From a virus (taxonomy: Duplodnaviria > Heunggongvirae > Uroviricota > Caudoviricetes): a stretch of 10,956 nucleotides of DNA. The position numbers and the translations under genes were made by a program. The number at the start of each line of letters is the position of its first letter. The first letter of the stretch is position 1. Positions 5,847 to 10,956 of the stretch are shown one piece after another. The notes under the pieces are model-generated. The model did not search any database. It saw nothing but the letters and a program-made list of their open reading frames with translations, and was not told where the DNA came from. The stretch is taken from the IMG/VR virus record IMGVR_UViG_2639762982_000012; one strand, given 5' to 3'.

Positions 5847-6848
5847 TTAAGGCTTCGGCTTTTTATCGAGGCTCTTTCTAAGGATATGCCCAATCATCCT
5901 GTCGAGTTCTTCCTGTAGCTCTTTTGAAAGTCGATTAAACTCATAAGAAAATGCACGGCCTTTCACGCGCTTCCTTGCAAAGCGATCCTTGTCCTCAAAT
6001 TTCCATAATTCAGTAACTACGGACTTATCTTTAGAACCTTTATCCGTGAGTAGTGAGGCTTCCTTTGTTATCAAGCGCAGGATTTTATTTTTAACTTCAT
6101 CTTCGGCCATTTCTTCAATGGATAAGATGTCGTTTATTTCCGGGGATATATTTTGAATAAGCTGATCAAACTCTAAATTCTTGTTCCCCATTTCGTCGCC
6201 AACAGCACAAAGCGTTTTGTAGTCCGAAAAGGTTAATTCCGACTGCACAGGGAAAAGGGCGACTAATTCTTCCGGAGCACTCGCTGCCTGGAGAGCACGC
6301 GTGACCTTCGCCTGAGACAGCCCTTCTTTGGCTGCAATATCCTTCTGACTCATCCCATCATTTTTCATTCGCATCAAACGCAGACCTATTTCTCGAATGC
6401 TGTGCTGCAATGCTGTCTGAACGTCTTTCGCTAAATTTAGCGCTTCCTGAACGCTGATCTCCTGGTCCGTGACTAAAACCCGCAACCCTACGTTCTCTAA
6501 GATGGCAGAAGCTCGACGCCGGGAACCATCCAAAATTTCAATTTTCCCTGTTGCCCGTCTAACACCTATTGCAGGGTAAAATTGCTGATGCTTAATAGTG
6601 CTTCGGATACTTTTTAATGATTTTGGCGTAAGAGATGCCTGGTCACGCCCGTTGTTATGCTGATCAACAAAGGTATCGCTTTCTACCTGGTTCGGAGGTA
6701 TTACCTCTTCAATAAATGTGGCCTGGCGACCAGTTGATAACTTGAATACCTGCTCGACTCGATCGCCAGAGGCTGAAGAACTATCAAATCCGCTTAATAT
6801 TGAAGGATTAAGGGTTCGCCCAATTGTTGGTCTGTTTTTCTTTGACAT
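5847..6848 (-). CDS. parB: ParB centromere-binding partition protein, 333 aa
   Basis: ATG at 6846-6848 with GGAG upstream, 16 nt after the parA stop. Length equals P1 ParB (333 aa). Followed immediately by parS. Confidence 0.9.
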   Translation of the reverse strand: MSKKNRPTIGRTLNPSILSGFDSSSASGDRVEQVFKLSTGRQATFIEEVIPPNQVESDTFVDQHNNGRDQASLTPKSLKSIRSTIKHQQFYPAIGVRRATGKIEILDGSRRRASAILENVGLRVLVTDQEISVQEALNLAKDVQTALQHSIREIGLRLMRMKNDGMSQKDIAAKEGLSQAKVTRALQAASAPEELVALFPVQSELTFSDYKTLCAVGDEMGNKNLEFDQLIQNISPEINDILSIEEMAEDEVKNKILRLITKEASLLTDKGSKDKSVVTELWKFEDKDRFARKRVKGRAFSYEFNRLSKELQEELDRMIGHILRKSLDKKPKP

Positions 6849-6864: not shown

Positions 6865-8061
6865 TCAGTTAGATCTGATAAATTCAATACGGTCAAAAAC
6901 TGCTTTAGCAAAATCTTCCGCGGCAATTCGCGCGTTCTTCAATGCATCAGCACTACCAACATACGTTGCCGGGTTAGCTGAAATAACAGTGTCAAAAGAC
7001 TCGCCGCAACGTTCAAAACCGTCAAGGCGAGGGAGGACGACATCGAGCATATCCCCACCGAACACTTCTTTAGCCAGGCTATGGCAATACTTATGATCTG
7101 CCTTGTTACTCAACTTGGACATAAAACCAATGTTAGTCGCAAGCTGGCACTCGCAGCCTTCATCCGAAATGAGTTTCACCAACTCAGGAAGGCGGGCAAC
7201 GTATTTAAGCGATGAGTGGAAATCGACAGTTGCTGGCGGCAGAGGTGTAAACAGTATATTGGCCGAGGCCAAAGCATTTTTCAGGAAGGCGTCAAGGTGA
7301 GGACCACTATCAACGAGGATAAAATCATAATCGCTCTTCAGCTTATCAATCACATTTTCTTTCAGGACAGCATGGATGTTCTGACCCGGTAGATGCTCAT
7401 TGCACAGCTCTCTCCAATCGGATGCAATAAAGGCATCGTCAATCGACGCAGGCATAACGTCAACCCCAGGTACAACAGAAGGAACAATAAACTCCTCTAA
7501 CAGCTCTTCACGGCTTACATTCTGCAACATAGCCTGTGCAGATGTTGCGTTTACGATACCAATAGAGTGTTTATGGCTTAAAAACATCGTTGCTGAAGAT
7601 TGCGGATCAAGGTCAATAACCAGAATCCTTAAATCTTCCATCAGAAGATGAGGGTGAGCACGCATTGCATGCGCCAGAGAAACCGTCGATACAGTTTTTG
7701 ACACACCGCCTTTAAGATTGGAGATGAAAATCACATACGCTTCGCTGTAGCGATCCCGGTATTTTGGCACTCCGCGATGTTCATATATGTCAATGATGTT
7801 CTGAATTGACATCGCATATTTCATTGAAGAGCCAGCAGGGCGCTTATCGAAAACATAACCCTTTTCTTCCATTTCACTTACAGCATAGTCAACGTTCGCT
7901 CGAGTCAGTAGAGGCAATTTTGCCAGTGCCGCTTTCGCATAGACCTGGTAAAACTCGTTCGCGTGTAGCTCATCCTTTTGCAACTGTACTTGTTCAGTCA
8001 GAACATTGAGCATTCTATTTGCTCTTTGAGCAACCTTGTGAAGCTGGCTGGAATCACTCAT
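6865..8061 (-). CDS. parA: ParA partition ATPase (type Ia, with N-terminal regulatory extension), 398 aa
   Basis: Deviant Walker A motif KGGVSKT in ISNLKGGVSKTVS. The long N-terminal extension is typical of autoregulatory type Ia ParA/SopA. Length equals P1 ParA (398 aa). AAGGA RBS before the ATG at 8059-8061. Confidence 0.92.
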   Translation of the reverse strand: MSDSSQLHKVAQRANRMLNVLTEQVQLQKDELHANEFYQVYAKAALAKLPLLTRANVDYAVSEMEEKGYVFDKRPAGSSMKYAMSIQNIIDIYEHRGVPKYRDRYSEAYVIFISNLKGGVSKTVSTVSLAHAMRAHPHLLMEDLRILVIDLDPQSSATMFLSHKHSIGIVNATSAQAMLQNVSREELLEEFIVPSVVPGVDVMPASIDDAFIASDWRELCNEHLPGQNIHAVLKENVIDKLKSDYDFILVDSGPHLDAFLKNALASANILFTPLPPATVDFHSSLKYVARLPELVKLISDEGCECQLATNIGFMSKLSNKADHKYCHSLAKEVFGGDMLDVVLPRLDGFERCGESFDTVISANPATYVGSADALKNARIAAEDFAKAVFDRIEFIRSN

Positions 8062-8104
8062 CGAAAGTCATCCTTTATGCTGTATTTTTGAATTTAATTA
8101 AAAA

Positions 8105-8155
8105 AGCTGCATAAAATAATAATGTATGCGTAGATGCTTGTACATAGCATTCTCT
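8105..8155 (-). promoter_or_regulatory. Putative parA promoter/operator with imperfect palindromes
   Basis: ATGCTTGTACATAGCAT (8134-8150) is an imperfect 17-bp palindrome carrying a -35-like TGTACA on the minus strand, with a -10-like TATTAT about 16-17 nt downstream (plus ~8115-8123). GCATA-N11-TATGC lies at 8109-8129. Type Ia par operons are autorepressed at palindromic operators overlapping the promoter. Confidence 0.4.
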
Positions 8156-8200
8156 GCGTGTTTGGTTCATTTTGCACGATTGAGAGTTACAAGGAGGGCA

Positions 8201-8222
8201 CAAAAAAGCCCCGTTCAGGGGC
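8201..8222 (-). terminator. Rho-independent terminator immediately after the inserted module
   Basis: Minus strand: GCCCC-TGAAC-GGGGC followed by TTTTTT. It lies 8 nt after the stop (8230-8232) of the 86-codon ORF and upstream of the parA promoter. Confidence 0.75.
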
Positions 8223-8229
8223 ATCAGTG

Positions 8230-8490
8230 TTATTTGCTAAGAGCAGCGAATAATCGTTCGAAATCGATAGTATCTATAGCACGCGTAAGCGCCGGAAGTT
8301 CAGCCTCAAAGTACCCATGTCGATCGTAAAAGATGGGACCGAAGAGCGAGGCATGTTGGATTCTACTTCGCCCCAGCCCGGACACACAGTTAAGCCCATT
8401 ACCGGCTAAAAGGCTAAAAAACTTCTCTGGATTATCGTGGTAAAGCTGGGAATCAATGGTGGCGGTTAACTCTTCCATAGGGAAGCACAC
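8230..8490 (-). CDS. 86-codon ORF; probably the C-terminal part of the upstream GIY-YIG/T5orf172-like gene (same frame, separated by one TAA)
   Basis: Begins with GTG and has no convincing SD. It is in the same frame as 8512..9039 and separated from it by a single TAA (8512-8514) plus 7 sense codons (YPWDTGR). No recognisable motif. Confidence 0.4.
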   Translation of the reverse strand: MCFPMEELTATIDSQLYHDNPEKFFSLLAGNGLNCVSGLGRSRIQHASLFGPIFYDRHGYFEAELPALTRAIDTIDFERLFAALSK

Positions 8491-8511
8491 CCGCCCTGTA
8501 TCCCAGGGATA

Positions 8512-9039
8512 TTAAGTCCGAAGCATAAACATTGCTTTCAGCAATTCACACTGAGCGCGGATCGCGTCCGGTTCATAGCCAGATATGGAGACATAAGCCA
8601 CGTCCCTCATTCCTGCGTCATCTTTGAAAGTCACGATAGAAGTAACATCCAGCTCTTTTTCGAAAGAGCAAGCAGCATCTACTGGACGCTGAAGTAAATC
8701 ATTCGACTTAATGCGCTCGAGAATCCCTCCCCACATATCATTTAGATATTCGATATGAGCCAAAACCTTATCAAGACACTCTCGTGTAAACCATTCAGTA
8801 TGCCCGCCACCTGCGCTTTTCTCCCACGGCGCATTCCAGGGGAAAAAGGTTGCGTGTAAAGCCCGCTCAAGATTAACCATTGCCAAACGCGTACCACGAT
8901 AGACCCGTGAAAGCGCAAAATCGGGACTCACTTGTAGCCCTTTAAACCGTGCCAATGGACCACATGAAATGCCGATTTTAAAAGTATCTCCGTTCTCCGG
9001 CACCAGAACGTAGAGGTAGTGTTGTTTCTCTTCTTGCAT
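8512..9039 (-). CDS. GIY-YIG superfamily (T5orf172-like) domain protein, 175 aa as written; possibly truncated by a nonsense codon
   Basis: N-terminal YLYVL-(10 aa)-FKIGIS-(6 aa)-R ... ALHATFF ... GGGHTEWF reproduces the GIY / YIG / Arg / Glu spacing of GIY-YIG-type domains in the T5orf172 / MUG113 style. ATG at 9037-9039 directly abuts the incA-like iterons. Weak SD. Confidence 0.6.
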   Translation of the reverse strand: MQEEKQHYLYVLVPENGDTFKIGISCGPLARFKGLQVSPDFALSRVYRGTRLAMVNLERALHATFFPWNAPWEKSAGGGHTEWFTRECLDKVLAHIEYLNDMWGGILERIKSNDLLQRPVDAACSFEKELDVTSIVTFKDDAGMRDVAYVSISGYEPDAIRAQCELLKAMFMLRT

Positions 9040-9073
9040 ATCAATACCACTGCTTGATGAGAACCGCGCAAAT

Positions 9074-9330
9074 GTTGACTATGCGCGAAAGTTAATGTGA
9101 ATAGTTGACTATGCGCGATGTGACTACAGTCAAAAGTTGACTGTAGTCGATTTAACTCCACCAAAAATCGACTATGTAAGATATTGTCGGGAGAAACGTT
9201 GACTATACGCGATGAAATGACCCTAAAAGCCATCTCAATAGCGACTTGCAGAATATTGACGCCAGCAAAAATCCACCAGCGTCAACGAATGTCGCCTATA
9301 GTCAACTTCTCGCTATCGCATATAGTCAAT
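9074..9330. repeat. incA-like iteron array (RepA binding sites, both orientations) downstream of repA
   Basis: At least seven copies of a ~15-bp motif, GTTGACTATRCGCGA. Forward copies at 9074-9088, 9104-9118 and 9198-9212. Inverted copies at 9291-9306 and 9316-9330. Degenerate copies near 9168-9180 and 9255-9289. A perfect 13-3-13 palindrome, TGACTACAGTCAA-AAG-TTGACTGTAGTCA, spans 9121-9149. Confidence 0.8.
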
Positions 9331-9331
9331 A

Positions 9332-10216
9332 TTATGGATTGCGCTTATGGATCTGGAAGCCGATTTTCCTGCCGTTTTTTATCTCTGAAAATTTAAGATA
9401 TTCAATAGCTTCCAAATCTTTCATAGCTTTTCTGATAACGCTATTTTGCACGCTAACGGATGATTTGAGATTAAGCCTTGCTCTAAGGCGCTCAATGCTG
9501 ACAGGTGCCGGGTTGGCGGGTAGAGCCTCAAAGAATGTATACAGCACCTTGGCCGTCTCTTTGCGCCCGAGCTTATCCAGCATCTTCAGCTTCAGGATTC
9601 GCTTATAGTCAACATAGTAAAGTTCAGATAGCTGTTTCTGCGGCTGGATCTCGATAACATCAAGCTCGGTATTCAGGCTGCTATATGCCAACAAGTTGAC
9701 GTTAATGTTATTGAGATGACCTTTTGCCGCCGGGAAGCGGAATTTGACAACTGTCTGCTGAATGCGTGTCAGAGAGTCATCAATACTTTTACGGAACGCC
9801 TTTGAAAGGCGCTTACGTGGATAGCCGCATCGATCGGCAAACTCGGAGAATGGCAGGGTGATTATGCCGTCATCATCAGGTGCGTAGTCAAACAACGCGG
9901 AGGTTATGCCCACCCACACCTTAAAATCAGTATCCATATCCAGGCGTGGACCATGTATTTCAATTCCCTCATAGCCTTCCTGCTCAACAATTTTGAGGCT
10001 TGATAGTTCTTCGGTTGCGTTCGTTGTGTTTGTAGTAACTGACGATCCGCGACGTAGTGCCACATTGGTAGATTTTAAGGTTGGCACAAACACACCTAAG
10101 CGCAACAAAGCGATGGGTTGTATAGTGCTATTGTTATTGGGTTTCAGGCTGTGGATTTCTCCTGTATTTCCTGCAACTTCTTCAACGCTAAGGAAGCCTT
10201 TATTTTCTTCCGGCAT
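9332..10216 (-). CDS. repA: RepA replication initiator (iteron-binding), ~294 aa
   Basis: Flanked on both sides by iterons. Start chosen at the ATG at 10214-10216, which has GGAG 8 nt upstream; the longer frame from the TTG at 10273 lacks an RBS. Internal motifs (QPIALLRLGVFVP, GPRLDMDTDFK) resemble what I recall of the P1 RepA family. P1 RepA is 286 aa. Confidence 0.85.
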   Translation of the reverse strand: MPEENKGFLSVEEVAGNTGEIHSLKPNNNSTIQPIALLRLGVFVPTLKSTNVALRRGSSVTTNTTNATEELSSLKIVEQEGYEGIEIHGPRLDMDTDFKVWVGITSALFDYAPDDDGIITLPFSEFADRCGYPRKRLSKAFRKSIDDSLTRIQQTVVKFRFPAAKGHLNNINVNLLAYSSLNTELDVIEIQPQKQLSELYYVDYKRILKLKMLDKLGRKETAKVLYTFFEALPANPAPVSIERLRARLNLKSSVSVQNSVIRKAMKDLEAIEYLKFSEIKNGRKIGFQIHKRNP

Positions 10217-10295
10217 CGTGGTTTCTCCATATGTGGCGCGGCCTGGCGTCATCTGGATTGCAGTTATCAACAACTGTGAATAGTCAGGCTCTAAA

Positions 10296-10397
10296 ATCGC
10301 GTACAGTCAATGTTTCTGTCGCGTATAGTCAACAATAAATCGCGTGCAGTCAACAATAAATCGTGCACAGTCAACATAAAATCGCGTATAGTCAATG
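10296..10397. repeat. incC-like iterons: five direct repeats at 21-22 bp spacing between the origin and repA
   Basis: TCGCGTACAGTCAATG (10297), TCGCGTATAGTCAACA (10319), TCGCGTGCAGTCAACA (10340), TCGTGCACAGTCAACA (10361), TCGCGTATAGTCAATG (10382). Same motif as the incA-like array, all in one orientation, two helical turns apart. Expected to overlap the repA promoter. Confidence 0.85.
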
Positions 10398-10436
10398 TTG
10401 ATCCCATTTCAGGCCAGAAATGGCGCGGCTTACAGC

Positions 10437-10771: not shown

Positions 10772-10956
10772 TCAGCCGCACACCCGCTGTTGCGCCAGTG
10801 GCTCATGCATCAGGACCAGCTCTGTCAGACGGTAGCCCCGCTTCAGCCCCGTAAAACGCATCTGACATCCGCACAGGATGCACTTTAGCGGGTCAACCTT
10901 CAGTAACCGCTGATACATCCCTCTCCACCTGATTTGCATCGCCGTCTTTCTCACCG
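10772..10956 (-). CDS. C-terminal 60 codons of an ORF running in from the right edge; CxxC-containing, function unknown
   Basis: The frame is open to the last base of the window and stops at 10772-10774. Contains ...DPLKCILCGCQMRF..., vaguely like Zn-ribbon C-termini of some transposases, but I cannot place it. Confidence 0.3.
   Translation of the reverse strand, partial: VRKTAMQIRWRGMYQRLLKVDPLKCILCGCQMRFTGLKRGYRLTELVLMHEPLAQQRVCG

Follow-up and report, generated by a model that had tools for sequence, protein, structure and literature searches.

At the junction between the replication and partition genes of a P1-like phage-plasmid (a viral DNA of 10,956 nucleotides (nt), IMG/VR record IMGVR_UViG_2639762982_000012, class Caudoviricetes; hereafter the window, meaning this whole stretch) lies a gene for a predicted two-domain nuclease of the T5orf172 family, which in this copy is broken into two open reading frames (ORFs). 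Sequence comparison places the gene inside a replicon block that differs as a whole from that of P1, and its features suggest that the intact protein may serve competition between mobile elements. All coordinates and strands are window positions and gene order is read on the minus strand, on which origin-side iterons, repA, incA-like iterons, a 175-codon ORF, an in-frame 86-codon ORF, a hairpin with a T-run, the par promoter, parA and parB follow one another:

10292..10416, no strand assigned: origin-side (incC-like) iterons with 21-bp spacing, upstream of repA (repeat families D1 and D2)
9332..10219, minus strand: repA of the p0111 type (Rep_3 family), 41–42% identity with P1 RepA
9070..9330, no strand assigned: incA-like iteron array, core TCGCGCATAGTCAAC (repeat families D2–D5, sequence and inverted repeats)
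8512..9039, minus strand: 5′ part of the nuclease gene, codons 1–175 and the premature TAA (ORF of 175 amino acids (aa), ATG at 9039), encoding the T5orf172/GIY-YIG domain (aa 1–117), a disordered linker (aa 122–145) and the first strand and long helix of the C-terminal domain
8512..8514, minus strand: premature TAA, which is AAA (Lys176) in intact alleles (RCS47 alignment; PLSDB 30-mers)
8230..8511, minus strand: 3′ part of the nuclease gene, codons 177–269 and the natural stop, encoding the core of the predicted winged-helix-like C-terminal domain, here detached from the nuclease domain
8230..8490, minus strand: ORF of 86 aa in the same frame as the 175-aa ORF
8198..8222, minus strand: intrinsic-terminator-like hairpin and T-run (terminator scan; RCS47 identical there)
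8164..10421, minus strand: exchangeable replicon cassette differing from P1 (blastn of RCS47 and the window against P1)
8062..8163, minus strand: par promoter/operator region common with P1 and outside the module (97.6–99% identity; P1 annotation of Ppar and the ParA operator)
6865–8061, minus strand: parA
5847–6848, minus strand: parB, with P1 structural genes beyond

The incA-like array consists of five iterons in one direction beside the nuclease gene and two in the opposite direction beside repA. The iteron nearest to the nuclease start occupies 9074–9088 and the ATG at 9039 lies ~35 bp further, in agreement with an earlier note on this DNA that had placed a GIY-YIG/T5orf172 frame at the iteron edge; the dedicated intrinsic terminator that the same note had put before the par promoter is likewise there, as a hairpin (GCCCCTGAACGGGGC) and T-run (8222–8198) that begins 8 nt past the natural stop codon (8230–8232). 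Homology with P1 resumes at 8163, ~35 nt beyond the terminator.

The two ORFs share a frame and are separated by one TAA (8512–8514) and seven sense codons. Phage RCS47, a P1-like element whose corresponding DNA is 98.6% identical, has one annotated coding sequence (CDS) of 810 nt there, "GIY-YIG nuclease family protein", and base-by-base alignment gives TAA in the window against AAA in RCS47 at codon 176 (that is, K176*). By this alignment, the two segments are one 269-codon gene (8230–9039, minus strand) interrupted by a point nonsense mutation, and the second in-frame segment of the earlier note is a product of K176*. When alleles were counted in PLSDB with a 30-mer that had to include the variable base of codon 176, AAA was found in 373 records and TAA in three, one of which is NZ_MN510446, plasmid pSvP1_F of the porcine enterotoxigenic Escherichia coli (ETEC) strain SvETEC; this plasmid is 100% identical to the window over 8160–9060 and has the same flanking insertion sequence (IS) elements. 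It is because K176* splits the gene that the description of pSvP1 lists "48,004-49,273, 2 orfs ... inserted between repA and parA" (PMC6906374). In a large protein collection, the exact 175-aa product occurs on 264 contigs, and the broken allele therefore belongs to a successful lineage. The gene is disrupted in other ways too: 139 contigs carry an ORF of 177 aa truncated at the N-terminus, an Escherichia albertii plasmid has a deletion of 2 nt, and the frame is shifted in phage 673R5 and in plasmid CP043244.

Of the C-terminal domain, only the first strand and the long helix precede the stop at codon 176, and its core is therefore lost; judged from this position, the window's copy has most likely no function, or supplies at best a nuclease domain without targeting. 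The seven codons past the premature stop (8491–8511) are followed by a GTG at 8490 and, four codons on, by an in-frame ATG, so that a C-terminal fragment might in principle be made on its own by reinitiation; neither start showed a convincing ribosome-binding site.

The surroundings of the gene differ from P1 over far more than the gene. Reference P1 has ~190 bp without a CDS between the −35 box of Ppar and incA iteron 1, and no gene remnant was found in this spacer (tblastn E above 0.5, no blastn match); in the P7-type element L008, the 400-bp gap between repA and parA holds iterons only. The earlier note was thus right that P1 has no ORF between incA and parA, and the module, being absent from both P1 and a P7-type element, is not core backbone. 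RCS47 and P1 are 97–99% identical in the flanks and differ in a single block, 2,259 bp in RCS47 and 1,500 bp in P1. This block (~2.25 kb, window 8164 to ~10421) comprises the terminator, the nuclease gene, the incA-like iterons, repA and the origin-side iterons. A separate insertion of the gene into a P1 replicon is rejected on these grounds, given that the whole of 8164–10421 differs from P1 with the gene inside it; the self-contained cassette between canonical P1 modules that the note had envisaged gives way to a block in which repA (41–42% identity) and both iteron arrays are also non-P1. P1 and P7 are without the gene, yet differ from the window over the entire cassette. The gene is present in 401 PLSDB records and p0111-type repA in 399 (~1:1 linkage), and on this distribution the nuclease gene is a fixed component of the p0111 replicon of P1-like phage-plasmids. 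The accessory status assigned in the note stands in so far as the gene is dispensable for maintenance, but not as an insertion, as the gene is part of a swapped ~2.25-kb replicon block and goes ~1:1 with the repA type.

A P1-type empty junction is found in ~144 PLSDB records, and ~177 further records match the iterons only, of which the one checked is P7-type. As a possible empty site next to a diverged type-A repA, we considered CP042620.1 (L020, pNCYU-26-73-5), a 93.6-kb E. coli plasmid with a repA of 77% nt identity to that of the window. It has neither the nuclease gene nor parAB downstream, and a phage tail gene abuts its iteron region, which makes it a rearranged replicon; with the region downstream of repA rearranged and par gone, it is uninformative. 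The name of the replicon differs by resource: MOB-suite calls it 'IncHI1B' or 'IncFIB,IncHI1B' (L003, L012–L019), INPHARED 'RepFIB replication protein A', and the literature on P1-like elements p0111.

Homologues of the nuclease occupy the same slot in other replicon lineages. K-mer and exhaustive searches returned one full-length relative beyond the near-identical cluster (P0004, 44% identity), the remaining relatives matching the N-terminal domain only. P0004 and two of the other homologues (P0010 and P0011) each lie on a P1-like contig between repA/iterons and parA, and the replicons concerned differ in their initiators: the RepA of L004 is 84% identical to that of the window, the RepA of L005 is 83% identical to that of P1 (that is, IncY-like), and the RepA of L006 is a third type, 42–48% identical to all others. 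The C-terminal halves of the two homologue pairs align colinearly over 110 columns in hhalign (E 4e-5, probability 70%), and the nucleases of all four lineages are probably one family with full-length homology. Between L004 and L005, ParA is 100% and ParB 98% identical, whereas a single exchanged stretch of ~2.2 kb sets their RepA (40%) and nuclease (29%) apart; inheritance of the gene thus follows the replication cassette, not the partition cassette. An open frame and the catalytic residues have been kept across the four lineages, which have diverged to 27–45% identity. Because homologues occupy this slot in three further lineages, the gene may be an old component of the replicon family that the P1/P7 cassette is without; this is the simplest history, with gain or loss unproven. 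Homologues of the P0010/P0011 type were absent from INPHARED phages and PLSDB plasmids, where only the p0111-type gene was found.

More distant T5orf172 relatives lie in mixed mobile-element contexts, with no general linkage to rep or par: prophage-like regions, a plasmid relaxase region, a defence-island-like region, and an element with a putative initiator between two T5orf172 genes. In this last, unrelated small element (L011 3431–5813, Logan SRR27197495), T5orf172 genes of 196 and 270 aa flank an initiator-like HTH_36 protein downstream of a ParA-like gene, a further case of T5orf172 beside a replication gene.

The N-terminal domain of the protein has the GIY-YIG alpha/beta fold and matches Pfam T5orf172 (PF10544) at residues 8–85 (E=2e-6, 28.7 bits against a gathering score of 20), classical PF01541 not being reported among its Pfam matches. 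In the alignment from an exhaustive HMMER search, Y10, K21, G23, R31, E58, E82 and W83 are invariant in 62 relatives; these residues, which include the Tyr of 'GIY', the Gly of 'YIG', the Arg and the metal-binding Glu of the catalytic motif, are all encoded within the window's 175-aa ORF. The full-length protein matches PHROG 2876, a group without assigned function, and had no match in a PDB sequence search. A disordered linker (aa 122–145) gives the protein a two-domain layout, and the C-terminal ~125 aa are predicted to be winged-helix-like. The profile of this domain has no PDB sequence match and no Pfam match; its structural matches to Rep-WH1-like winged helices score below significance, and the many RepE54 entries among them represent one protein. 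Winged helices are, moreover, very common folds. Comparisons aimed at a RepA origin of the C-terminal domain found no similarity, either by sequence (BLASTP against window RepA and P1 RepA, E above 3) or by profile (hhalign against a five-sequence RepA alignment, probability 0.2%).

Nine closely related p0111-type elements were compared for polymorphism, with the following counts of codons and ratios of nonsynonymous to synonymous polymorphism (pN/pS):

parA: 47 synonymous-only polymorphic codons, 1 amino-acid-changing, pN/pS 0.00
repA: 26 synonymous-only polymorphic codons, 1 amino-acid-changing, pN/pS 0.02
nuclease gene: 15 synonymous-only polymorphic codons, 17 amino-acid-changing and the stop, pN/pS 0.33

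By domain, pN/pS is 0.56 in the C-terminal domain against 0.20 in the nuclease domain. Across a wider distance (window against L004), the C-terminal domain is 31%, the N-terminal domain 59% and RepA 84% identical, and the iterons are similar. Because the gene is absent from P1/P7-type replicons and contrasts in pN/pS with repA and parA, it is not a core maintenance gene; by these measures it behaves as an accessory gene that can be dispensed with and evolves fast yet is under selection, neither a maintenance factor nor pure junk. Among plasmids of PLSDB in which the cassette is present (L012–L019), RepA (WP_001113742.1) and ParA (WP_001285362.1) have an identical accession in almost every plasmid sampled, and the nuclease accession differs in nearly every one.

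From these observations we propose that the gene encodes a resident two-domain T5orf172 nuclease of the p0111 cassette that is directed against competing mobile elements and is non-functional in the window, a reading in which our confidence and our doubt are about evenly balanced. The intact 269-aa protein would be a sequence- or partner-directed DNA nuclease, with an N-terminal GIY-YIG nuclease domain joined by a flexible linker to a C-terminal winged-helix-like domain of the targeting type; it would serve competition with related phage-plasmids, plasmids or phages, and would not be a replication or partition factor. The gene is inherited as a passenger of repA and the iterons, not of parAB, and its transcripts would probably arise by read-through from repA or start at a promoter that overlaps the iterons. 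A role in conflict is plausible because two other T5orf172 proteins, Odn and CapR, have demonstrated nuclease or DNA-binding action in conflicts between elements. Odn of phage ICP1, in which T5orf172 is fused to a DNA-binding domain resembling RepA, has been shown experimentally to cut the origin iterons of the satellite PLE (PMC8263062), and the PLE protein CapR is a repressor acting on capsid genes, for which an origin from a T5orf172 homing endonuclease has been hypothesized by its authors (PMC8096241). The idea in the earlier note of a nuclease-based defence or exclusion function thus keeps its plausibility as inter-element conflict, whereas for defence in the narrower sense no PADLOC model matches.

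Several observations weigh against this proposal. In each of the four lineages the C-terminal domain has an acidic pI (4.8–5.3), which is unusual for sequence-specific DNA binding; the charge would fit binding to a protein (for example, RepA) at least as well as binding to DNA. Within the p0111 replicon type the gene does not vary in presence or absence, and active homing is not visible because this type offers no empty sites. No promoter of the gene's own was recognized: a consensus scan of the gene strand between the iterons and the nuclease ATG found no sigma-70-like promoter, inspection by eye gave poor candidates only, and none was recognized between the iterons and the ATG in any of the lineages. 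Neither a defence family (PADLOC-DB 2.0, E<=1, for the intact protein or either fragment) nor an NCBIfam model matches.

The alternatives differ in what the protein would act on. In a reading closest to Odn, the protein would be a replicon-directed nuclease in which the Rep-type, WH1-like C-terminal domain guides T5orf172 to the iterons of rival P1-like elements or to iteron-bound RepA, destroying competitors that incompatibility alone cannot exclude. Such a role would suit a gene that abuts Rep_3-type iterons, is co-inherited with the repA type and has a C-terminal domain diverging far faster than RepA despite similar iterons in the window and L004, as would fit a target other than the element's own iterons, and ICP1 Odn provides an experimental precedent (PMC8263062). 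We nevertheless consider it unlikely, given that the domain is without sequence or profile similarity to cognate or P1 RepA (BLASTP E above 3; hhalign 0.2%), that its structural scores are sub-significant, with RepE54 entries that reduce to one protein and a fold that is common, that it is acidic, and that the order of domains is opposite to that in Odn.

It is also improbable, in our view, that the protein is an anti-phage defence or exclusion effector, activated by an infecting phage and degrading phage or host DNA in an abortive-infection manner to protect the lysogen. Defence genes, like this one, typically evolve fast and are often lost, and one of the wider relatives adjoins Mrr_cat, WYL and Ymh genes; however, besides lacking a PADLOC match, this is a single gene without a recognizable sensor partner, and it lies outside the known variable cargo regions, locked in a replicon cassette in four lineages.

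We place very little weight on a domesticated regulator with dispensable cutting activity, which would bind DNA or RepA near incA or Ppar and tune copy number, iteron handcuffing or par expression. The location between the RepA-titrating iterons and the par operator, the long retention in the same slot in four lineages, and an acidic, Rep-WH1-like C-terminal domain that could pair with RepA would all accord with regulation, for which CapR and the autorepression of I-TevI are precedents (PMC8096241). Against it, the strictly conserved catalytic residues argue for retained nuclease chemistry, P1/P7-type replicons function without the gene, truncated alleles persist on hundreds of contigs, and pN/pS contrasts with that of repA and parA. 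Very doubtful, finally, is a selfish or neutral leftover without present function (that is, an old homing-endonuclease gene that became fixed in the cassette and is now degenerating), for although constraint is relaxed (pN/pS 0.33), at least four independent disruptions are known (K176*, the 177-aa N-truncation, the E. albertii deletion, and the 673R5 and CP043244 frameshifts) and no empty sites are left to invade within the replicon type, open frames and catalytic residues are retained in four lineages at 27–45% identity, pN/pS is well below 1 (0.20 in the nuclease domain), and 373 of ~376 PLSDB alleles are intact at codon 176.

An N-terminal GIY-YIG domain, a linker and a C-terminal domain make up the layout of the free-standing homing-type endonucleases I-TevI and the Seg proteins. 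The predicted protein resembles I-TevI and T4 SegA–G in combining these parts, with a targeting-type C-terminal domain, in ~250–300 aa, in the intergenic slot of its gene between conserved phage genes with a terminator of its own, and in its patchy distribution (absent from P1/P7), fast evolution and frequent decay. It differs in belonging to the T5orf172 clade and not to the classical GIY-YIG Pfam family, in a C-terminal domain that is acidic and predicted to be winged-helix-like, where that of I-TevI is a basic zinc-finger/minor-groove helix/helix-turn-helix module, and in the lack of empty-site polymorphism within its replicon type. With Odn (gp88) it shares the fusion of T5orf172 to a second domain, a gene carried by a phage and the tie to an iteron-type replicon (PMC8263062), and the second domain is predicted to resemble, weakly, the winged helices of iteron initiators in structure. 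However, the binding domain of Odn is clearly similar to the RepA_N of PLE, whereas no RepA similarity is found here in sequence or profile; in addition, the domain order is reversed, and Odn attacks a satellite, whereas the present gene is inside the replicon of its own element. The likeness to Slx1 and At-HIGLE is at the level of the fold only (11–19% identity), these being eukaryotic proteins that need partners such as Slx4 and have a RING/PHD-type C-terminus.

The presence of the gene is already on record in databases and two papers, without an assigned function. RCS47, SJ46 and JL22 carry the same gene in the same position (98–100% nt identity; 'gp57' in JL22, PHROG 2876, and 'GIY-YIG nuclease family protein' in RefSeq); the window's copy differs from theirs by K176*, and none of these records assigns a function. 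In the literature we found no paper on the function of the gene, nor any on plasmid-borne origin-directed nucleases other than Odn. What is new here is the nonsense explanation, the cassette boundaries, the conservation of the slot in four lineages, the contrast in selection, and the prediction of a winged-helix-like C-terminal domain.

Some further features of the locus stand apart from these questions. Within the incA-like array, two head-to-head iterons at 9122–9148 form a perfect 12+12-bp palindrome (GACTACAGTCAA ctt TTGACTGTAGTC), which lies 83–109 bp ahead of the nuclease start codon. The palindrome looks like a dimer operator of the RepE type, and the related array of L004 does not have it. 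The longest repA ORF starts at a TTG at 10273 (313 aa), against the annotated ATG at 10219 (294–295 aa; RefSeq, RCS47), and its extra 18 codons overlap the origin iterons. Rfam gave no match to a structured RNA in 7900–9500. At its right end (10772–10954, minus strand), the window carries an IS91-family transposase, the IS there being named ISEc84 in the pSvP1 paper (PMC6906374). In pSvP1_F (locus L003), IS421 on the left and this IS91-family element on the right enclose the whole P1 segment, which extends from the structural genes to oriR; this arrangement accounts for the missing upfA side of the P1 origin.

P1-like phage-plasmids spread resistance and virulence genes in Enterobacteriaceae, and ~400 PLSDB plasmids with a p0111-type replicon hence carry an uncharacterized nuclease gene; the "two ORFs" of pSvP1 are one gene with a nonsense mutation, and its annotation should say so. 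If the intact protein attacks competitors, it would help to decide which phage-plasmids can coexist with which plasmids and with each other, and would be a second natural T5orf172 nuclease tied to an iteron replicon, after ICP1 Odn. Should the more specific and, to us, improbable case hold, in which a chimeric T5orf172 and Rep-WH1-like nuclease within an exchangeable cassette recognizes the iterons or RepA of rivals and destroys rival replicon types, the gene would be a plasmid-against-plasmid weapon beyond classical incompatibility, and could help to explain why replicon cassettes are swapped block by block.

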